DNA of 64,000 nucleotides, taken from the NCBI GenBank assembly GCA_903839695.1, contig CAIMDI010000010.1, positions 6,703 to 70,702 of the forward strand, written 5' to 3'. The notes under the pieces are model-generated. The model saw nothing but the letters and a program-made list of their open reading frames with translations. It searched no databases and was not told the DNA's origin. Origin of the DNA: Candidatus Tayloriibacteriota bacterium (GTDB taxonomy: Bacteria; Patescibacteriota; Minisyncoccia; Phycocordibacterales; PALSA-1337). Both the position numbers and the translations under genes were made by a program. Within the stretch, counting starts at the first letter, position 1. Each line of letters opens with the position of its first letter. This document shows, one piece after another, positions 2,898 to 57,544 of the stretch.

Positions 2898-3569
2898 ATG
2901 CTTATATTAACAGTTGAACCACGCGATTTAAAAATAAAGAACGAAACTCTACGTGAAAGTGGAAGTATTCCTGCTGTACTTTACGGACCTAAACAAAAAT
3001 CTACTTCTGTAAAAGTTTCTACTATCGATTTCATAAAAGCTTATAAAAAAGCTGGTGAATCATCAGTTATTCTATTGAAAGAAGGAGACAAGGAACATGA
3101 GGCACTTATACAAGACGTAGATGTTCATCCAGTTACAGGCGCACCAAGACATGCAGATTTTTATGTAATAGAAAAGGGAAAGAAAGTAAAAGTAAATGTA
3201 CCACTTATTTTCGAAGGAGTTTCTCCAGCAGTAAAGGACAAAGGAGCTATTCTTATCAAAGTTGCCCGAGATTTGGAAATTGAAGCAGCACCAAAGGATT
3301 TACCACACGAATTAAGAGTAGATATATCTACACTAGTAGAATTTTCAAGTACAGTTATGGCAAAGGACATTAAACTTCCAGCAGGAGTAACACTTATTTC
3401 AGGACCAGACGAAATACTTGCATCAGTTTCAGAAGCAAAAGAAGAAACAGAAGAAGTAAAACCTATAGACATGTCAACAATCGAAGTAGAAAAGAAGGGC
3501 AAGGTAGAAGTAGAAGGAGAAGCTGGAGAAGATGCTTCAGCAGAAAAGAAAGAAACAAAGAAGGCGTAA
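2898..3569 (+). CDS. rplY: 50S ribosomal protein L25 (Ctc form with an acidic/lysine-rich C-terminal tail)
   Basis: N-terminus LTVEPRDLKIKNETLRESGSIPAVLYGPKQ matches the L25/Ctc 5S-rRNA-binding fold. C-terminal E/K-rich extension. Confidence 0.8.
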   Translation: MLILTVEPRDLKIKNETLRESGSIPAVLYGPKQKSTSVKVSTIDFIKAYKKAGESSVILLKEGDKEHEALIQDVDVHPVTGAPRHADFYVIEKGKKVKVNVPLIFEGVSPAVKDKGAILIKVARDLEIEAAPKDLPHELRVDISTLVEFSSTVMAKDIKLPAGVTLISGPDEILASVSEAKEETEEVKPIDMSTIEVEKKGKVEVEGEAGEDASAEKKETKKA

Positions 3570-3599
3570 GCCTTTTTTGTTTATGCTACAATATACTAT

Positions 3600-4949
3600 A
3601 TGAATTTGATTGCGAAAGTATTTTTTATTATGGGTATATTTTTTATGCCTATTTTGATACATGCACAGGCTGTTGAAACAGCAGCTCAAAAAGAATCTAG
3701 ACTTCAGGCTGAGCTTGCACAAGTATTAAAAGAACAAGAAGAAACCGAAAAAATCCTTGCAAGTGCACAAAATCAAAGTGCTTCATTAAAGCGCGATATT
3801 CTTATACTTGATACAAAAATCAAGTCAGCTCAGCTAAATATTAAAGCCAAAAATCTACTCATAGAGTCGCTAGGTAAGGATATTACAAAGAAACAAGAGC
3901 AGATTTTAAGTCTGGAGGAAAGGATAAGTAGAGGTAGGGAAACTTTGTCTCAAATAATGCGAAAAACAAATGAAATAGATTCATTATCAATACCAGAATT
4001 TATTTTAGAAAAAGAAGATTTAACTACAGTTCTTTCAGACATTGATAAATTTGAATCAATACGAGAATCATTAAAAATTACATTTGAACAAATTAGAAGT
4101 GATAAGACACAGACAGAGACAGAAAAAGATGTATTGGATAAAAGAAAGAATAAGGAAATGGACGCCAGAGCGACAATAGAATCAGAAAAAAAGAATATTC
4201 AAAATGATGAAATAGAAAAACAGAAACTATTAACAGAGAGTAAGGGAAATGAAAAGGCGTATTCACAAATACTTGCAGATAAAAAGATAAAAGCAGCACA
4301 AATAAGATCTGCATTGTTTTCATTGAGAGATGCAGCAGCTATTCCTTTTGAAAAAGCATTACAATACGCAAATATTGCATCAAAAAGTACAGGTGTAAGA
4401 CCCGCATTTTTACTTGCAATTCTTACTCAAGAATCAGCATTAGGAAAAAATGTAGGATCTTGTTATTTAAGTGATATAAACACAGGATATGGAGTAAGCG
4501 TAAAATCAGGAACTATATTTCCAAATGTAATGAAGCCAGGAAGAGATACAACACCTTTTGTAAGTATAACAAAGTCATTGGGTATGGATCCTATGAAAAC
4601 ATTGGTTTCTTGTCCAATACTCAGCGCTGGAGGATACGGTGGAGCGATGGGCCCAGCACAATTCATTGCCTCGACATGGATGTTGTTTAATAGTCGATTG
4701 GCTAAAGTATTAAATACTCCTATACCAAATCCTTGGTCACCTCAAGATGCTTTTATGGCTTCGGCAATGTTTCTCTCTGATCTAGGTGCGTATTCAGGAA
4801 GTTATACAGGAGAAAGAAATGCAGCTTGCAAATACTATTCCGGTAAAGCATGTAGTACAAAGTCAGTTAATAATGCATATGGAACACAAGTTATGTCAAA
4901 AGCAGCTATTATTCAACAAACAATGATTGATCCATTGCAAGGATTGTAA
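3600..4949 (+). CDS. secreted coiled-coil protein with a C-terminal lytic-transglycosylase-like domain
   Basis: Signal peptide, then ~250 aa of heptad-rich coiled coil. Then LLAILTQESALG (ES catalytic motif) and GAMGPAQFIASTW (the MltB/SLT-type GxMQF..TW motif). Confidence 0.6.
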   Translation: MNLIAKVFFIMGIFFMPILIHAQAVETAAQKESRLQAELAQVLKEQEETEKILASAQNQSASLKRDILILDTKIKSAQLNIKAKNLLIESLGKDITKKQEQILSLEERISRGRETLSQIMRKTNEIDSLSIPEFILEKEDLTTVLSDIDKFESIRESLKITFEQIRSDKTQTETEKDVLDKRKNKEMDARATIESEKKNIQNDEIEKQKLLTESKGNEKAYSQILADKKIKAAQIRSALFSLRDAAAIPFEKALQYANIASKSTGVRPAFLLAILTQESALGKNVGSCYLSDINTGYGVSVKSGTIFPNVMKPGRDTTPFVSITKSLGMDPMKTLVSCPILSAGGYGGAMGPAQFIASTWMLFNSRLAKVLNTPIPNPWSPQDAFMASAMFLSDLGAYSGSYTGERNAACKYYSGKACSTKSVNNAYGTQVMSKAAIIQQTMIDPLQGL

Positions 4950-8794: not shown

Positions 8795-8861
8795 GTCTTG
8801 GTAGGTATACAACGTAAGGTGAGAATAATGACCCAAATGTGTTTTTGAAAAATAAATATTT

Positions 8862-8937
8862 GCCACCTTAGCTCAGTTGGTAGAGCAACGCTTTTGTAAA
8901 GCGAAGGTCCCCAGTTCAAGTCTGGGAGGTGGCTCCA
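8862..8937 (+). tRNA. tRNA-Thr (anticodon UGU), with encoded CCA
   Basis: Manual cloverleaf: acceptor GCCACCT/AGGTGGC, D-arm GCTC-AGTTGGTA-GAGC, anticodon loop TT-TGT-AA, T-arm CCCAG-TTCAAGT-CTGGG, discriminator T, CCA. Confidence 0.85.
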
Positions 8938-42516: not shown

Positions 42517-45500
42517 ATGGAAAAAAATAATATGTATAAAAGACAAAATGACCCAACAGACTTCGATGCAGTGAAGCTTGGTGTCGCTTCGCCTGAGAAA
42601 ATCTTGGAATGGTCTTTTGGTGAAATTACAAAGCCTGAGACTATTAACTACAGAACTCAAAGATCTGAAAAGAATGGACTTTTTGATGAGAAAATATTCG
42701 GTCCTGATCGTGATTATGAATGTTATTGCGGAAAGTATCGTGGAATAAGATACAAGGGAATTGTTTGTGAAAAATGTGGAGTTGAAATCACACGCTCTAT
42801 TGTTCGTCGAGAAAGAATGGGACATATAGAACTAGCTACTCCTGTTTCTCATATTTGGTTCCTACGATCAATGCCTTCTCGTATTGGTTTGGTTCTTGGT
42901 ATGACAACTTCTGATTTAGAAAAGGTTGTTTATTTCGCTGGATATATTGTCACCAAAATTCATCAAGGAGAAAAAGATGCTTTCTTGAAAGAGCTTGAAT
43001 CTGAATTCAAAACTAAAGTTAAAGCTGCTCAAGATGAAAAAACAAAAGATGCTCTAAAGGAGCTTGTACTTACAGCTCGAAGAGAAATAGAAAGTCTTGT
43101 GCCTGGATTTGTTATGGATGAAGTTCAATATCACAAGTACTCAATGAAATATGGTTCATTATTTGAGGCTGGTATTGGTGCTGAAGCTATATTTGATATT
43201 CTAAAGAAAACAGATATGGGCAAACTCCTTGCATCTCTTGAAGGGGAATTTGAGGGAGCAAGTACACTTGAAAAAGAAAAATTATCAAAAAGAATTTCTC
43301 TTATCAAGTCAATGATAAAGTCAGAAACAAGACCAGAATGGATGTTTCTAACAAGAATTCCAGTTATTCCACCAGCACTTAGACCAATGGTTGCTCTTGA
43401 TGGTGGTCGTTATGCTACATCAGATGTAAATGACCTTTACAGAAGAGTAATAAATCGAAACAATCGTTTACTTAAATTAAAAGAAATTGAAGCACCAGAT
43501 GTTATTTTAAGAAATGAAAAAAGAATTCTACAAGAAGCAGTAGATGTACTTATAGATAATTCTATTCGTCACGGTGCAGCAACAGGAGCTGCAGCTATAC
43601 AAGCTCAAAAGCGTGCTCTTAAATCATTGTCAGATAATCTAAAGAGTAAGAGAGGATTATTTAGACAAAATCTTCTAGGAAAGCGTGTGGACTATTCAGG
43701 ACGTTCAGTAATCGTTGTCGGACCTACTTTGGCACTAGATCAATGTGGTCTTCCAAAGCACATGGCACTTGAACTTTTCAGACCATTCGTTATTTCAGGA
43801 CTATTGAAAAGGGAATTAGCTTTCAACATTAGAGGTGCGGGTAGACTTATAGACGATGGAGCAAAAGAAGTATGGGAAATTCTAGAAGAAGTTATTGCTG
43901 GTAAGTATGTTCTTCTAAATCGTGCGCCTACTCTTCATAGATTAGGTATACAAGCATTCCGTCCTACTCTTATTGAAGGAAATGCTATTCAAGTTCATCC
44001 ACTTGTTTGTACAGCATTCAACGCTGACTTCGACGGTGACCAGATGGCCGTTCACGTTCCACTTGGAGTTGAAGCGCAACTTGAAGCAAAGGAAATAATG
44101 GCAGCAGACAAGAACATTTTAAAGCCTGGAAACGGAGATCCTACAGTTGTAGCTAAGCTTCTAGATATTGTTCTTGGTTGTTTTTGGATAACAAAAACAG
44201 TTGATGGCGACAATGGTGAAGGAAAAATATTTGAAAGTCCAGAAGCCGCATTAACTGCTCACAATTATGACGCAGTAACTTACAGAGCAAAAATAAAAGT
44301 TCTACCAAGAGATGACAAAAAATACGCCCAATTTGAAGGTAAACTTTTTGAAACTACAGTTGGACGTATTCTATTCAACGATATTCTTCCTTGTGATTAT
44401 CCTTTTATTAACAAGGAAATCGATAGAAAGAAATTGTCAGGTATTATGGACGATTTGATTATTAGTCATGATATGAAAGATATTCCTATCATTCTTGATC
44501 AAATTAAAACTTTTGGATTCAAATACGCTACACATTCAGGAACTACATGGGGTATTGATGATGTTATTATTCCAAATGGTAAAGCAGAAGTTATAACAAA
44601 GGCAAAAGCAAGTTCAGATTTAGTAATGGAGCAATTCAATGAGGGATTACTTACAGAAGAAGAGAGACTTAGAAAAAATATTGAAATTTGGCATAGTGCA
44701 AAGGGACAAGTTGAAAAACTTATTCCAAGTTCATTAAATAAAATGGGATCAGTTTACGATATGGTTACATCTGGAGCCAGAGGTTCTCTTTCTCAGATTA
44801 CACAAATGGCCGGAATGAAAGGATTGATCGCTTCTGGATCTGGAGCAACAATTGAATTCCCAATTATATCTTGTTCAAAAGAAGGTTTGACTCCTATTGA
44901 GTATTTCATTACTACTCACGGTTCAAGAAAAGGTCTTACAGACACAGCCCTAAATACAGCAAAAGCAGGTTATCTTACAAGAAAATTATTCGTTGTTGCA
45001 CAAGACGTTATGGTTAACGAAGATGATTGTGGTACAAAGGATTCTATTATTGTAAAAAAGCAAACAGCCTCAGGAATAAATATTCCATTGTCAAAGAATA
45101 TTAGAGGACGTGTGCTAGCAGAAGATTTGCACGCCGCAGACGGAAGTGTTCTATTCAAAAAGAATCACTTATTGTCAAAATTAGAAGCAGTTAAAATAGA
45201 AGAGGCAGATATAGCTGCGGTTCGTGTGCGCTCACCACTTTCATGTAAAAGTGTAAGAGGTGTATGTGCTCAATGTTACGGAGTTGATTTAGGAAGAAAT
45301 AAGCTTGTAGAATTGGGAGAGGCAGTAGGTACAGTTGCTGGACAAGCTATCGGAGAGCCAGGAACACAGTTGACTATGCGTACATTCCACGCCGGAGGTA
45401 CAGCGTCAGTTGGTGGAGATATTACTCAAGGTCTTCCTCGCGTTGAAGAAATCTTTGAAAAACGACGTCCAAAAAATCCTGCAGTTGTTTCTGCAGTTAG

Positions 45501-46197
45501 TGGAACAGTTACAGAAGTTAAAGATCTTGGTAAAGAGAAAGTAATCAAGATAATGCCAGAATTAGAAGATAGAGCAAAGGGTAATAAGCCAAGTGAAGTT
45601 GAATACCTTTTCAATTCTAAGCGTATGTCTTTTGTTAAAATGGGAGATAAAGTAAATAAAGGAGACTTAATAACTGACGGATCTGCCGATATTGATGAAG
45701 TCTTTGAATTCGGTGGAGCAGAAAAAGCAAAGGATTATGTTATTAGTGAAGTTGGAAAGATTTATGAATTACAAGGAGAAACAGTAGCAAGAAAGCATAT
45801 TGAAATAATAGTAAAGCAAATGTTTTCAAGAAGAAAAGTTACTGAAGCTGGTAATACAAACTTTGCAGAGGGAATGATTGTTGATGATATATATCTAAAA
45901 GAAGAAAATGATAAAGCAAAGGAGACAAATGGATCATTGGCAAAGGTAGAAGCAGTTGTTATGGGAATAACAGAAGTATCTCTATCTAGAAAGAGTTTCC
46001 TTTCTGCGGCATCATTCCAACACACAACTCGTGTACTCATAAATAGTGCAGTTAGAGGAAGTGAAGATGATCTAATAGGTCTAATGGAGAACGTTATCAT
46101 AGGTCGCTTGATTCCAGCAGGTTCAGGATTTGCAGGAAGTCCAAAGCAAAAAATGATAGAGACAGTTCAACCAAAGGAAGAGGAATATGGGTATTAA
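42517..46197 (+). CDS. rpoC: DNA-directed RNA polymerase beta' subunit
   Basis: Zn-finger CYCGKYRGIRYKGIVCEKCG and catalytic NADFDGDQMAVH. rpoB-rpoC adjacency. Confidence 0.95.
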   Translation: MEKNNMYKRQNDPTDFDAVKLGVASPEKILEWSFGEITKPETINYRTQRSEKNGLFDEKIFGPDRDYECYCGKYRGIRYKGIVCEKCGVEITRSIVRRERMGHIELATPVSHIWFLRSMPSRIGLVLGMTTSDLEKVVYFAGYIVTKIHQGEKDAFLKELESEFKTKVKAAQDEKTKDALKELVLTARREIESLVPGFVMDEVQYHKYSMKYGSLFEAGIGAEAIFDILKKTDMGKLLASLEGEFEGASTLEKEKLSKRISLIKSMIKSETRPEWMFLTRIPVIPPALRPMVALDGGRYATSDVNDLYRRVINRNNRLLKLKEIEAPDVILRNEKRILQEAVDVLIDNSIRHGAATGAAAIQAQKRALKSLSDNLKSKRGLFRQNLLGKRVDYSGRSVIVVGPTLALDQCGLPKHMALELFRPFVISGLLKRELAFNIRGAGRLIDDGAKEVWEILEEVIAGKYVLLNRAPTLHRLGIQAFRPTLIEGNAIQVHPLVCTAFNADFDGDQMAVHVPLGVEAQLEAKEIMAADKNILKPGNGDPTVVAKLLDIVLGCFWITKTVDGDNGEGKIFESPEAALTAHNYDAVTYRAKIKVLPRDDKKYAQFEGKLFETTVGRILFNDILPCDYPFINKEIDRKKLSGIMDDLIISHDMKDIPIILDQIKTFGFKYATHSGTTWGIDDVIIPNGKAEVITKAKASSDLVMEQFNEGLLTEEERLRKNIEIWHSAKGQVEKLIPSSLNKMGSVYDMVTSGARGSLSQITQMAGMKGLIASGSGATIEFPIISCSKEGLTPIEYFITTHGSRKGLTDTALNTAKAGYLTRKLFVVAQDVMVNEDDCGTKDSIIVKKQTASGINIPLSKNIRGRVLAEDLHAADGSVLFKKNHLLSKLEAVKIEEADIAAVRVRSPLSCKSVRGVCAQCYGVDLGRNKLVELGEAVGTVAGQAIGEPGTQLTMRTFHAGGTASVGGDITQGLPRVEEIFEKRRPKNPAVVSAVSGTVTEVKDLGKEKVIKIMPELEDRAKGNKPSEVEYLFNSKRMSFVKMGDKVNKGDLITDGSADIDEVFEFGGAEKAKDYVISEVGKIYELQGETVARKHIEIIVKQMFSRRKVTEAGNTNFAEGMIVDDIYLKEENDKAKETNGSLAKVEAVVMGITEVSLSRKSFLSAASFQHTTRVLINSAVRGSEDDLIGLMENVIIGRLIPAGSGFAGSPKQKMIETVQPKEEEYGY

Positions 46198-46251: not shown

Positions 46252-46279
46252 AGCCCTAGAAATAGGGCTTTTTCTGTTT
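46252..46279 (+). terminator. rho-independent terminator after rpoC
   Basis: AGCCCTAgaaaTAGGGCT followed by TTTTCTGTTT. Confidence 0.6.
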
Positions 46280-46374
46280 GCGGGAGCTTACAGATCCCTT
46301 CTTTAAAATTTCTTTATAACTTCTTAATAACTTTTTGCTAAAGTGAACAAATTATTAAGATAATTGAATAATAT

Positions 46375-46803
46375 ATGAAAAAAGATTATAAAGAATGGTT
46401 TAAATTTAAACCTATAGTTAACAATATTGAGAATAATATTAGAGCTCGAACTGGCGAAATCTGGTACTGTCACTGGGGGACTAATGTTGGTTCGGAATTT
46501 GATGGCAAGGGCCAAAATAGCATAAGACCAGTTTTAATAATTAAAAAGACTAGTCCTAATACATTCTTATGTTTACCGCTAACAAGTAATGGTAAAGATT
46601 TGCCAATGTATTTTAAATTAAACTCATTTAATACAAAATCTAGTATTGTATTGGATCAGATTCGCTCAATAGATTCAAAAAGATTTTTTAGGTTCATAGA
46701 ACAAGTATCTGATAAGGAGTTAAAAAATATAATAGATAAGTTGGTTCATTATATAAAAGGCGAAACCCCGCCAAATGGCGGGGAATCTCGGCGGTCCAAC
46801 TAA
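46375..46803 (+). CDS. MazF/PemK-family type II toxin (endoribonuclease) homologue, with no antitoxin gene evident
   Basis: [27 protein letters not shown] is similar to EndoA [40 protein letters not shown] is similar to [29 protein letters not shown] is similar to LDDEMMDKVDEAL. Confidence 0.6.
   Translation: [142 protein letters not shown]
46766..46783 (+). other. perfect GC hairpin CCCCGCC-AAAT-GGCGGGG inside the 3' end of the MazF-like ORF
   Basis: 7-bp all-GC stem in a genome of ~32% GC. No U-run follows. Confidence 0.4.
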
Positions 46804-46874
46804 GGACGACTGTACTCATATCATACCAAACCTCTTCTTGTAGTCAACCCCTTAAATGATATATACTGTACGCA

Positions 46875-48656
46875 ATGTCATCTAATGTCGAAAAAATCAA
46901 GGAAAGACTAGGAATTGAAGAGGTAATTAGTTCATATATCAAGCTTGAAAAAGCCGGTAAAAACCTAAAGGGTAAATGCCCATTTCATAATGAAAAAACT
47001 GCGTCATTTTTCGTATCACCTGAAAGGGGAACATATCATTGTTTTGGGTGTTCGATGGGCGGGGACATCTTCAGTTTTGTAGAGCAATTTGAAGGTTTAG
47101 ACTTTATGGGATCATTAAAAATGCTTGCCGAAAGAGCTGGTGTTCAATTGGAATTTGATAAAGCAAATAATGAATACAAAACAGAAAAGGAAAAATTATT
47201 GGCAATTATGGAGGACGCCACAAAGTTTTTTGAAGCTGGATTACAAAGTTCTAAAGATGCACAAGAATATTTAAAAAAGAGAGGTATAAAATCAGAAACA
47301 GCAAAAGAGTTTCGTATAGGATATATTCCCGCAGATTGGAGATTGCTTTATACATATTTAAAAAATAAAAAATACGCAGATAATGAGATCGAAAAGGCGG
47401 GATTAATAAAGCGACCGGAAGAAATAGGTGGAGTAAAAAAAGAATATTACGATAGATTCCGTGGTCGTATTATGTTTCCCATTTCAGATTCTGGTGGACG
47501 TGTAATAGCATTTTCTGGAAGAATATTAATTGACGATGGTAAGTCTGCAAAATATTTAAATAGTCCTGATACGATTTTATTTAACAAAAGTACAGTTCTT
47601 TATGGCATAGATAAAGCTAAACAAACGATACGAATAAAAGATTATTCTATTTTAGTTGAAGGGCAGATGGATTTGGTACTTTCTCATCAGGCAGGCATAA
47701 AAAATACAGTGGCAGTGTCCGGAACTGCGCTCGCAGACTCTCTTGTTTCTAAAGATAATGTTGTAAATAATCTAGGAATTATAAAAAGACTTTCAAACAA
47801 TATTATCCTTGCTTTTGATTCTGATAATGCTGGTAGAAAAGCTGCAATGCGCTCTTCTGCAATTGCTCTTAGTCTTGGTATGGACGTAAAAATTGCCGAT
47901 TTACCAGATGGTAAGGACCCAGCTGATTTAGTATTAGCAAATGTTGAGTCTTGGAAGGATGTATTGCGTAATTCTAAACCTGTGGTAGAATTTCAAATTG
48001 ATACTGTGCTTAAAAAAATGACAGCTGCAAATCTTGACCTGAGGTTATTACCACAGGCATTGCGGGAAAATGTCCTTCCATTTATTGCTCCTCTAACTGG
48101 AGCGATGGAAAAAGCACACTATATAAAATTAATAAAAGAAAAAACCGGGCTTTCTGAAGAATCAATTCGAGAGGATTTGAGGAAAATAGAGGCGTCATTA
48201 AATGGTTTGGTCGCGGAAGTTCGCATGGCTGAAAAGCTTAAAGCGACAACGACTAGGCTAGACTCCATTATCAGAAAGTTGTTTGGTCTCATTTATTATT
48301 TAGAAAAAAACAATATACCTGGAATTGATGCAAAAAGTCACTTGACTAGCATCAAAAATATTTCAGGTGAAAGATATGAAAATATTATTAAAAGTATAGA
48401 GCCACATAAAGATGAATTATTATTAGAGGCCGAAGTGACTTTTAGTTTAGATAATAATAATTTAGCATCAGATTTGAATGAATTATTGTTAAATTTCGAA
48501 GAAGATATCGTTCGTCAGGAATTTTCAGAAACCATGTCGGAATTAGCAAAATCAGAAAGAGAGAAAGATGATCAAAAAGGTCAGGATTTAATGAAAAAAT
48601 GCCAAATACTAAGTATTAGACTATCAGAGTTGGCAAAAAGAAGAATTAAGATTTAA
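46875..48656 (+). CDS. dnaG: DNA primase
   Basis: CHC2 zinc finger CPFHNEKTASFFVSPERGTYHCFGC. TOPRIM region EGQMDLVLSH..FDSDNAGRKAA. Confidence 0.9.
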   Translation: MSSNVEKIKERLGIEEVISSYIKLEKAGKNLKGKCPFHNEKTASFFVSPERGTYHCFGCSMGGDIFSFVEQFEGLDFMGSLKMLAERAGVQLEFDKANNEYKTEKEKLLAIMEDATKFFEAGLQSSKDAQEYLKKRGIKSETAKEFRIGYIPADWRLLYTYLKNKKYADNEIEKAGLIKRPEEIGGVKKEYYDRFRGRIMFPISDSGGRVIAFSGRILIDDGKSAKYLNSPDTILFNKSTVLYGIDKAKQTIRIKDYSILVEGQMDLVLSHQAGIKNTVAVSGTALADSLVSKDNVVNNLGIIKRLSNNIILAFDSDNAGRKAAMRSSAIALSLGMDVKIADLPDGKDPADLVLANVESWKDVLRNSKPVVEFQIDTVLKKMTAANLDLRLLPQALRENVLPFIAPLTGAMEKAHYIKLIKEKTGLSEESIREDLRKIEASLNGLVAEVRMAEKLKATTTRLDSIIRKLFGLIYYLEKNNIPGIDAKSHLTSIKNISGERYENIIKSIEPHKDELLLEAEVTFSLDNNNLASDLNELLLNFEEDIVRQEFSETMSELAKSEREKDDQKGQDLMKKCQILSIRLSELAKRRIKI

Positions 48657-57061: not shown

Positions 57062-57154
57062 TTTGTCATTTACACTATTAATATTTTATTCTGCAATGGT
57101 GTTTTTTCATTAAATCTTTAAAACTTCTTAAGAACTATTTGTTACGGTGTGGGG

Positions 57155-57544
57155 ATGGATAAAGAAAAACATAGAAATTTTGTAAAAAACGCAAAAAATG
57201 AATATAAAAATATTAACAAGATTATTTGTCCGGCTTTTGGTAATGAATTTGTATACTTTAATCAAAAAGGTTTTAAACATTTGGTCATGAAGAAAGGTAA
57301 ATATCGGACAATAAGTGAACAAATAAGAAGATTAAAATTGATACCTGAAATTGTCTCAGTAATATCTAATGCAATTGAGTTTAGTTCTTATCGTAATAGC
57401 TTTGGCATAGATTTCTGGTCAATATCTAAAATCGTTAATGGTATTATAATTATTGTGGTTATAAGACAAAATAGTGTAGATAAGCACAAGTATTTTTTAA
57501 GTGTAATGGACAAGGTGATATATAAAAACGCAAAAGCCCCCTAA
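57155..57544 (+). CDS. hypothetical protein
   Basis: 130-aa ORF with no recognisable motif. It lies between truB and rpsA. Confidence 0.3.
   Translation: MDKEKHRNFVKNAKNEYKNINKIICPAFGNEFVYFNQKGFKHLVMKKGKYRTISEQIRRLKLIPEIVSVISNAIEFSSYRNSFGIDFWSISKIVNGIIIIVVIRQNSVDKHKYFLSVMDKVIYKNAKAP

Follow-up and report, generated by a model that had tools for sequence, protein, structure and literature searches.

The RNA antitoxins of type III toxin-antitoxin systems are encoded as tandem direct repeats located upstream of the toxin gene on the same strand, with a terminator before the toxin, and are processed by the toxin; the toxin ToxN has a Kid/MazF-like fold. The hallmark of type II systems such as MazEF and PemIK (Kis-Kid) is an adjacent and co-oriented MazE/PemI gene. 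A mazF gene without mazE has been described in M. xanthus, in which the solitary toxin MazF-mx is neutralised by an unlinked transcription factor, MrpC (PMC4803016), and for the abundance of solo toxins, which is unexplained, a small-RNA antitoxin has been suggested as one possibility (PMC2701414). In literature searches, neither a MazF neutralised by an RNA antitoxin nor, in bacteria of the candidate phyla radiation (CPR), the module reported below was found to have been described. Here we analysed a MazF/PemK-family toxin gene located between rpoC and dnaG at 46375..46803 (+ strand) of a 64-kb stretch of a contig from a Candidatus Tayloriibacteriota bacterium (hereafter the window, to which all coordinates refer unless a locus is named). 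Comparison with homologous loci showed that the toxin gene lacks a linked protein partner and is tightly associated with a predicted RNA gene, which is conserved, structured and strand-specific, and which is located on the other strand, around the 3' end of the toxin gene. Judging from these comparisons, the RNA is most likely an antitoxin that replaces MazE.

The toxin open reading frame (ORF) starts with ATG and encodes 142 amino acid residues. An earlier note on this DNA had proposed a MazF/EndoA-like protein at this position, and the proposal was borne out by family, structure-database and structure-prediction searches. PemK_toxin (PF02452) was the sole Pfam family matched, over residues 26-124 and with 58.7 bits (cutoff 23.1; E=7.8e-16), and the protein aligned with the PDB chains of S. 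aureus MazF and B. subtilis EndoA/YdcE at E ~1e-3. An AlphaFold2 (AF2) model, built with an alignment of 61 sequences, reached a predicted local distance difference test score (pLDDT) of 88.6 and a predicted template-modelling score (pTM) of 0.82, and upon a Foldseek search of this model the top PDB matches were the MazF proteins of S. aureus, B. subtilis and M. tuberculosis (E 1e-7), with a template-modelling (TM) score of ~0.78 (target-normalised) to the closest structures, those of S. aureus and B. subtilis. In the alignment with S. aureus MazF, R51-P52 of the toxin stand opposite the GVRPV motif and T70 opposite the IT motif; R51 and T70 correspond to the catalytic R25 and T48 of B. subtilis MazF. 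Both residues are invariant in an alignment of 13 sequences (A4), and R51 is at least 90% conserved in that of 61 sequences (A3). The protein is thus a genuine member of the MazF/PemK family, and is predicted to be a catalytically intact endoribonuclease. The option that the gene represents a domesticated RNase or a pseudo-toxin, also raised in the earlier note together with a check of the catalytic residues, is disfavoured because the catalytic Arg and Thr are kept and because the genomic contexts are variable and mobile-looking. The toxin fell far below the MazF equivalog cutoffs of NCBIfam (24.6 bits against 120, and 13.8 against 150), and a PADLOC search for defence systems gave no match. 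As a soluble MazF-fold protein of 15 kDa, it is not of the small, hydrophobic and membrane-active kind of peptide that characterises type I toxins.

Two parts of the protein differ from the MazF core. At the N terminus, the AF2 model contains an additional helix (residues 5-16), in which W8 is invariant and K12 invariant or nearly so across the subfamily. At the C terminus, the core is followed by a helix (residues 113-128), and then by a tail of 14 residues (129-142, encoded by 46759-46800) with low pLDDT of 59-69, which is absent or variable among homologues. Homology stops at about residue 128, and the tail is missing from a homologue with 36% identity (P0002). Longer homologues end in odd, frame-shifted-looking tails such as ETPPxGGESR, GAISEAEA and EPEGNLY. 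These tails in varied frames were the first hint of a conserved nucleotide element that is translated in different frames, and the last 14 residues of the window toxin are likewise the read-through translation of the opposite-strand RNA gene rather than conserved protein. In one predicted protein of 397 residues (P0057), the toxin is fused via the translated RNA element to an ORF with an SRA-like domain and an HNH nuclease; this is probably an artefact of ORF calling, and illustrates how gene callers read through the RNA gene.

The predicted RNA gene of the window is located on the minus strand and overlaps the final 50 nt of the annotated toxin ORF. Its promoter, identified by promoter scan and by alignment of the family loci, consists of a -35 box TTGACT (46842..46847, -) and an extended -10 box TGgTATGAT (46820..46828, -) at a 16-nt spacing. 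From the position of the -10 box, transcription is expected to start at ~46813, giving a predicted RNA of ~60 nt (46754..46813, -) composed of 5'-ACAGUC, a hairpin P2, the linker CGCCGAGAUU, a hairpin P1, and UUUCGCCUUUUA-3'. The hairpin P2 (GUCC-UUAGUU-GGAC; 46794..46807, -) holds in its loop the complement of the toxin stop codon TAA (46801-46803). The linker (46784..46793, -) contains the conserved CCGAG/CGA motif, and its CGAGA is able to pair with the UUUCG that follows P1, thereby lengthening the P1 stem. The hairpin P1 (CCCCGCC-AUUU-GGCGGGG; 46766..46783, -) is followed by UUUCGCCUUUU (46765-46755), the two together being the predicted intrinsic terminator of the small RNA. The 60-nt RNA folds with a minimum free energy (MFE) of -25.4 kcal/mol (z=-3.71), and none of 200 shuffled sequences was as stable. 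A covariance model was built from 19 seeds of one subtype of the element, subtype A, after an alignment over all subtypes with MAFFT and RNAalifold had mis-aligned P1. The model matched 46754-46804 (-) with 34 bits (E ~1e-9), and the second-round model matched it with 37 bits (E 2e-9), this being the sole match in the window. Rfam 15 was searched with the window and 17 other family loci and contained no match to the element even at E<=10; the scans gave only chance-level terminator-like matches (E>=0.2), with nothing on the element at the gathering threshold in 16 loci. Assignment of the element to a known Rfam family was therefore rejected.

For comparison, species-representative genomes were scanned for a degenerate DNA pattern of the family core, which gave at least 120 family loci; the locus counts given below are those among the loci listed. 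The family profile was matched by all of the 126 ORFs in the collected loci. A strict detector, which required a promoter score of at least 9/12, a correctly placed P2, and a P1 of 5 bp or more that included at least 4 GC pairs, identified the element on the strand opposite the toxin in 86 of 113 loci, on the toxin strand in none of the 113, and in 3 of 1120 random segments of the same length from the same contigs. By relaxing the detector, the element was found in 108 of 111 loci against a background of 9.5%, and the three missed loci carry covariance-model matches of 24-42 bits. The RNA was absent from none of the toxins examined, and the element thus lies beside nearly every family member, on the opposite strand and at the 3' end of the toxin gene. 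Depending on the detector, a convergent RNA gene of the type I style, with its own promoter and overlapping the toxin 3' end, is found at the sequence level in 86-108 of ~112 loci. The covariance models R1 and R2 are biased to subtype A and miss subtypes B and C and the copy of Nitratiruptor, all of these being recognised solely by the architecture detector or by eye.

The order of parts within the element is the same in nearly every locus. On the opposite strand, TTGACA is followed by a spacer of 16-17 nt, (TG)nTATAMT, ~7 nt, a short A/U-rich 5' tail (frequently ACAAAU), P2, the linker and P1. A -35 box TTGACA or TTGACT is present in 68 of the 86 strictly detected loci, the commonest -10 hexamers are TATACT (26/86) and TATAAT (23/86), and the TG extension is found in 44. 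P2 has 3-5 bp, with a UUCG loop in 40 loci; the linker varies between 2 and 10 nt, with UCCGA, CGA and CCGA dominating; P1 is GC-rich, with a median of 8 bp and a loop of GCAA, GAAA, GUAA or UUCG, and is followed by a U-run in 49 loci. In some loci (L003 at 3488-3543 and 3586-3644, L049, and L118), two RNA-like elements or duplicated P1/P2 units are arranged in tandem beside one toxin gene.

Selection on the RNA structure is indicated by covariation. In an alignment of 48 sequences to the model, 95.8% of the pair cells were canonical as against 73.5% upon column shuffling, and double-sided changes numbered 100 as against 28.7 in the shuffles and at most 15 in slid-register controls. Compensatory changes were identified in all nine P1 pairs and in two of the three P2 pairs, one P2 pair being represented by GC in 27, CG in 15 and UA in one sequence. 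The fitting of this alignment to the model biases it towards pairing; the slid-register and shuffled controls, as well as independent folds of single sequences, are nevertheless in agreement with it. Although either strand can form the hairpins, four signals favour the strand opposite the toxin: where the promoter lies and which way it points; an excess of G·U pairs over A·C mismatches of 16 to 2; a lower MFE of the RNA strand in 77 loci, as against 28 with the reverse (p=9e-8); and GNRA or UNCG loops, which close P1 in 43 and P2 in 47 of 86 loci on the RNA strand but in only 4 and 0 of 86 on the toxin strand. From the covariation, the excess of G·U over A·C, the MFE, the tetraloop bias and the promoter orientation altogether, the RNA is assigned to the strand opposite the toxin.

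These signatures bear on two other explanations of the element. The hairpins might act as DNA, being a site of recombination or transposition (attC-like, or an IS200/IS605-like end) for a toxin-carrying cassette, as the structures are imperfect palindromes and copies of the module are found in tandem and in numerous settings that have nothing in common. The G·U excess and the GNRA and UUCG loops confined to one strand, the correctly spaced sigma-70 promoter directly upstream of the hairpins, and the lack of both a matching element at the 5' side of the toxin and a conserved linked integrase or transposase make such a DNA site very improbable. Even less credit can be given to a small protein antitoxin encoded on the minus strand, for example by the 41-residue ORF at 46819..46694. 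This ORF opens with an ATG right after the -10 box of the window, and many loci have an AUG within ACAAAUGGC, but the window ATG is located upstream of the expected transcription start, an ATG is lacking in the interval from the predicted start to P2 in 50 of the 86 loci, the peptides are of 2-22 residues or open-ended and variable in sequence beyond MASAS, and the covariation reflects selection on RNA structure. A peptide on the RNA strand was thus rejected, there being no conserved ORF.

A linked protein antitoxin was searched for on both sides of the toxin. A total of 227 small ORFs near the toxin start (within 200 nt upstream) in 95 loci formed no BLASTP cluster larger than two, and the nearest large ORFs on either side of the toxin in the 95 loci formed no cluster larger than three, the neighbours being unrelated. 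Within the 64-kb window, no ORF of the MazE, AbrB or ribbon-helix-helix (RHH) kind was detected and no MazE/PemI gene lies adjacent to and co-oriented with the toxin; the intergenic small ORFs of the window encode ribosomal proteins L31 and L32, a KH-domain protein, DUF1653 and unrelated products. Since the neighbours of ~95 loci are unrelated to one another, the gene context is variable and no protein antitoxin is linked. An overlooked protein antitoxin was rejected on the same grounds. The earlier note had found no MazE-like or other small ORF flanking the toxin and had named an overlooked one as a possible objection; the absence holds here and in the ~95 homologous loci, and neither the small-ORF clustering nor the intergenic ORFs of the window revealed an antitoxin.

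The linkage was then examined from the side of the RNA. The 18-nt core TGGCTTCGGCCTCCGAGA, which covers P2 and the linker, was searched alone in metagenome contigs, giving at least 120 loci, of which 110 had enough flanking sequence. A convergent family toxin was located beside the core in 67 of the 110 listed loci, while 34 were chance coding matches (peptide ISEAEA, in GC-rich genes or genomes) without promoter or P1 and were excluded. Among the ~76 true elements listed, 67 have an intact adjacent toxin and nine do not: in one the toxin is separated from the RNA by an insertion sequence (IS), in two only toxin remnants are left, and six are without a family toxin. Linkage is thus essentially complete from the toxin side and amounts to ~68 of 76 listed true elements from the RNA side, some with decayed toxins. 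Such an asymmetry, the toxin being always with the RNA and the RNA sometimes without the toxin, is expected if the RNA protects against the toxin. The core had no match in viral contigs.

The individual exceptions are as follows. In L173 (6339-7332), a transposase gene of IS200/IS605 type is inserted between an intact toxin gene of 124 codons and the RNA, which hints that the RNA is able to act in trans. In L156 and L224, remnants of the toxin ORF (an N-terminal fragment, 'DFDLWNEIKKK...', and a C-terminal fragment) are located beside intact RNA elements. In L148 (~8800-8880) and L195 (~690-770), the element is located 30 nt after rpoC and is followed, without a toxin, by an NYN/LabA-like gene; it may be an orphan antitoxin retained since P1 doubles as the rpoC terminator. 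In L161 (12179-12794), a complete element is located 60 nt after an ORF of 90 residues with RelE/YafQ-like features, which has its own 87-residue ORF upstream; this could represent a replacement of the toxin, or merely neighbouring toxin-antitoxin modules. L129, L169 and L228 carry orphan elements.

The elements located directly after rpoC without a toxin in L148 and L195, in which P1 could act as the rpoC terminator, also lend themselves to an explanation in which the element is not an antitoxin but a bidirectional terminator or insulator with a tuning antisense promoter, or a substrate or cofactor of the nuclease, the toxin being held by an unlinked protein or being a housekeeping RNase. A solitary MazF with an unlinked protein regulator has precedent (PMC4803016), and the genome search was restricted to 64 kb. 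A terminator, however, needs neither a consensus promoter nor a second conserved hairpin nor a conserved linker, and the linkage, which is also high when viewed from the RNA, is ~100% when viewed from the toxin. Mobile-looking variable contexts, multiple divergent modules per genome, and toxin pseudogenes beside intact RNAs are the typical behaviour of toxin-antitoxin systems. We consider a role other than that of an antitoxin unlikely.

If the RNA is the antitoxin, its mode of action should be sought in the arrangement and conservation of the two genes. The favoured reading is direct sequestration of the toxin by the RNA, to which we assign a probability of about 0.45. The locus would then hold two genes in a self-contained and compact module of ~0.5 kb. 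A leaderless mRNA would direct synthesis of an endoribonuclease of the MazF/PemK family with the added N-terminal helix, and a small RNA of ~50-60 nt would be transcribed convergently from a strong, near-consensus promoter just past the toxin stop, end at or inside the toxin 3' end, and take the place of MazE. The stable, tetraloop-capped RNA would offer its conserved single-stranded segments to the RNA-binding groove of the toxin as a pseudo-substrate that is not cleaved. Such a mechanism would follow the logic of type III, yet with a single-copy and independently transcribed RNA in a layout like that of type I. A second layer of control through duplex formation with the toxin mRNA may be possible, because the RNA is perfectly antisense to the 3' end of this mRNA.

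Direct binding is suggested by the conservation of the RNA core together with the extra toxin helix. The 18-nt core stays within two mismatches of 18 while the adjacent toxins are only ~42% identical (41% in the pattern-selected set), and this conservation of primary sequence exceeds what antisense pairing alone requires. The conserved helix with W8 and K12 would provide a candidate contact on the protein, and in L173 the toxin is kept intact despite the IS between toxin and RNA.

The same module could instead operate with a purely cis-encoded antisense RNA of the type I kind, which pairs with the 3' end or 3' untranslated region (UTR) of the toxin mRNA and acts by RNase III cleavage and decay, or by interference between the convergent promoters, with no contact between RNA and protein. 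The layout speaks for this. The convergent orientation is invariable, and the terminator of the RNA reaches up to or across the toxin stop: the end of P1 precedes the stop-codon complement by 8 nt (median), and in 14 of the 86 loci, the window included, the ORF enters the element. Since no toxin-mRNA terminator is located ahead of the RNA gene, the two transcripts must overlap. The RNA promoter is far closer to consensus than the toxin promoter, and B. subtilis txpA/RatA and bsrG/SR4 and E. faecalis par share this layout. On the other hand, rigid UUCG or GNRA tetraloops on both hairpins leave few nucleotides for fast RNA-RNA pairing, P2 and the linker are conserved in sequence well beyond the needs of self-complementarity, and L173 tolerates an IS that parts the toxin from the RNA. 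Pairing of the RNA with the 5' end of the toxin mRNA was no better for cognate than for non-cognate pairs (-13.6 as against -13.0 kcal/mol, p=0.10) and was rejected as a mechanism, and there is no Shine-Dalgarno (SD) sequence to occlude. Regulation by antisense pairing alone is considered possible but less likely than direct sequestration.

Several points weigh against sequestration of the toxin by the RNA as the favoured reading. The transcript, its start and its termination point are deduced from consensus motifs, and in 20 of 86 loci P1 is followed by an A-rich rather than a U-rich tract, with no obvious terminator. The strictly convergent layout with abutting 3' ends has the look of a type I antisense RNA, and an RNA that only binds protein needs no such layout. 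The pattern used for the search in part determines how many conserved 18-mers are counted, and almost all of the loci listed are from metagenome-assembled genomes (MAGs) and metagenomes. As the search for a protein antitoxin spanned the 64-kb window, an unlinked one may be encoded elsewhere in the genome; the earlier note had named this option, but none of the present observations supports it.

The toxin family is large. A sensitive search gave 1595 clusters at 50% identity with E<=1e-3. Those with E<=1e-10 align over the full length, including an N-terminal extension of 25 residues with the consensus KDFxxWxxxK, which is not present in canonical, MazE-paired MazF proteins. Most of the listed loci are from MAGs of Patescibacteria/CPR (Nomurabacteria, Saccharibacteria, Paceibacterota, Peregrinibacteria and others), and a few from MAGs labelled Deinococcota, Verrucomicrobiota, Bacteroidota (Saprospiraceae), Chloroflexota (Ardenticatenaceae) and Proteobacteria. 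The predicted small RNA forms a new family, widespread in CPR and outside Rfam. Several divergent modules can share one genome. A foreign base composition of the module was considered and rejected, its GC content of 0.31-0.34 being inside the local range.

The genomic settings of some copies were recorded. In a Ca. Nomurabacteria contig (L094, MFTF01000024.1), two divergent toxin and RNA modules are located within the rpoBC cluster, 10 nt past rpoB and 13 nt past rpoC, and the window copy likewise comes immediately downstream of rpoC, as if the module were repeatedly inserted at the 3' ends of RNA polymerase genes. In L002 (5001-6100), a tandem pair of modules follows nrdR and a ribonucleotide reductase gene, and both copies share an extra conserved stretch (GGTTTAAATAATTTCTGTTTC.CATTCAGGGG) beyond the RNA promoter. 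The module is also carried by the 27-kb Nitratiruptor plasmid NZ_AP023062.1 (L123, 1483-2143) of the cultured Campylobacterota strain YY08-14, in which P1, P2 and the -10 box TGTATAAT were recognised by eye, the RNA being located downstream of WP_199200604.1. On this plasmid, the module is followed by an ORF of 62 residues with an RHH-like pattern (no Pfam match), upstream of the replication-initiation gene.

In the window, the toxin gene is flanked upstream by rpoC (42517-46197) and downstream by dnaG (46875-48656), both identified by Pfam matches in the 99-100% identical contig L001. The rpoC gene is followed, as read from the sequence, by an intrinsic terminator (46252..46279, +) with the stem 46252-46258/46263-46269, a GAAA loop and a T-run. 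The hairpin AGCCCUA-GAAA-UAGGGCU and the subsequent UUUUUCUGUUU insulate the toxin gene from rpoC, and the same site was flagged by a hairpin and terminator scan and by sub-threshold terminator-like Rfam matches. The non-coding DNA with the rpoC terminator upstream and dnaG downstream, as described in the earlier note, was confirmed, the spacer being 177 nt. A putative toxin promoter was identified by promoter scan at 46335..46364 (+), with TTGCTA, an 18-nt spacer and GATAAT (46359-46364). Its -10 box ends 10 nt before the ATG (46375), with no SD sequence; across the family, the end of the best-scoring -10-like hexamer precedes the ATG by 3-14 nt, most often by 6 nt, and only 3 of 107 loci contain an SD-like motif upstream. 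The -10 box abutting the ATG and the lack of SD suggest that the toxin mRNAs are leaderless or nearly so, and that they are transcribed from their own, weaker promoter.

The earlier note had also raised the possibility of an RNA antitoxin, as in type III systems, hosted by the AT-rich leader upstream of the toxin. A conserved RNA gene was indeed found as the partner of the toxin, but it is located downstream and on the opposite strand, and its likeness to type III is at most one of logic. The upstream leader shares nothing across the family apart from the -10-like box, and its folding is not better than that of shuffled sequences (z=-0.99). A weak AT-rich tandem repeat of 11 nt (CTTCTTTAAAA, 3.3 copies) is located at 46298-46333, in the interval between the rpoC terminator and the toxin promoter, and is absent from other loci. 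The leader was thus rejected as the RNA antitoxin, being unconserved, unstructured and without real repeats.

Downstream, an apparent dnaG promoter (46838-46875; TTGTAG, 16-nt spacer, TATATA) ends ~9 nt before the dnaG ATG, again with no SD. Since the -35 box of the small RNA, on the minus strand, lies within the same stretch, the two promoters stand back-to-back and overlap. Leaderless or SD-less starts seem to be common in these loci. Elsewhere in the window, an ORF of 131 residues (57149-57541) resembled large polyvalent protein-associated domain 3 (LPD3) only weakly, with a score below the threshold.

The module gives a concrete and testable answer to the question of solo toxins for one large subfamily of MazF, comprising the 570 clusters at 50% identity with E<=1e-10. 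The best-studied toxin fold would join those with RNA antitoxins, and types I and III would be less sharply separated. At present, genome annotation probably mislabels these loci as 'type II toxin' and over-extends some ORFs into the RNA gene. Direct experiments are possible with the cultured carrier, the plasmid of Nitratiruptor sp. YY08-14. We tentatively propose, at rather less than even odds, a previously unrecognised class of toxin-antitoxin system, in which MazF/PemK is neutralised directly by a single-copy RNA of ~50 nt that mimics its substrate and is recognised via the N-terminal helix, and which is the main form of MazF in CPR/Patescibacteria. The module recurs beside core genes, after rpoB and rpoC and before dnaG. 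If the proposal is true, many of the 'orphan type II toxins' in databases are RNA-antitoxin systems.

Comparison with the known systems places the module between the described types. With type II MazEF and PemIK it shares the PF02452 toxin with its MazF fold and catalytic Arg and Thr, and the small, mobile-looking and multicopy character, but it has no MazE/PemI gene, it has the extra N-terminal helix, and its sole conserved partner is an RNA gene; the public annotation as 'type II ... toxin' is thus probably wrong as to type. With type III (ToxIN, CptIN, TenpIN and AbiQ/antiQ) it shares, in the favoured reading, an endoribonuclease held inactive by an adjacent structured RNA, but this RNA is single-copy, downstream and convergent, with its own promoter and terminator and with no repeat array. 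With type I (txpA/RatA, bsrG/SR4 and par fst/RNA II) it shares the layout, in which a strong promoter beyond the toxin gene directs an antisense RNA whose end coincides with the toxin 3' end or lies inside it, but type I toxins are small hydrophobic peptides, whereas a 15-kDa RNase is predicted here, and the RNA is short, tetraloop-capped and conserved in sequence across deep divergence.

The Rfam pemK RNA motif, a motif of the 5'-UTR of Firmicutes pemK genes, is likewise a structured RNA tied to pemK-family genes; the RNA described here is located at the 3' end and on the opposite strand. MazF-mx resembles the window toxin as a mazF without mazE, but is controlled by a trans-encoded protein in a single lineage, whereas the cis-linked RNA gene is conserved in >100 loci of many phyla. 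The locus is therefore best described as a probable toxin-antitoxin module that pairs a known toxin fold with a new kind of RNA partner.

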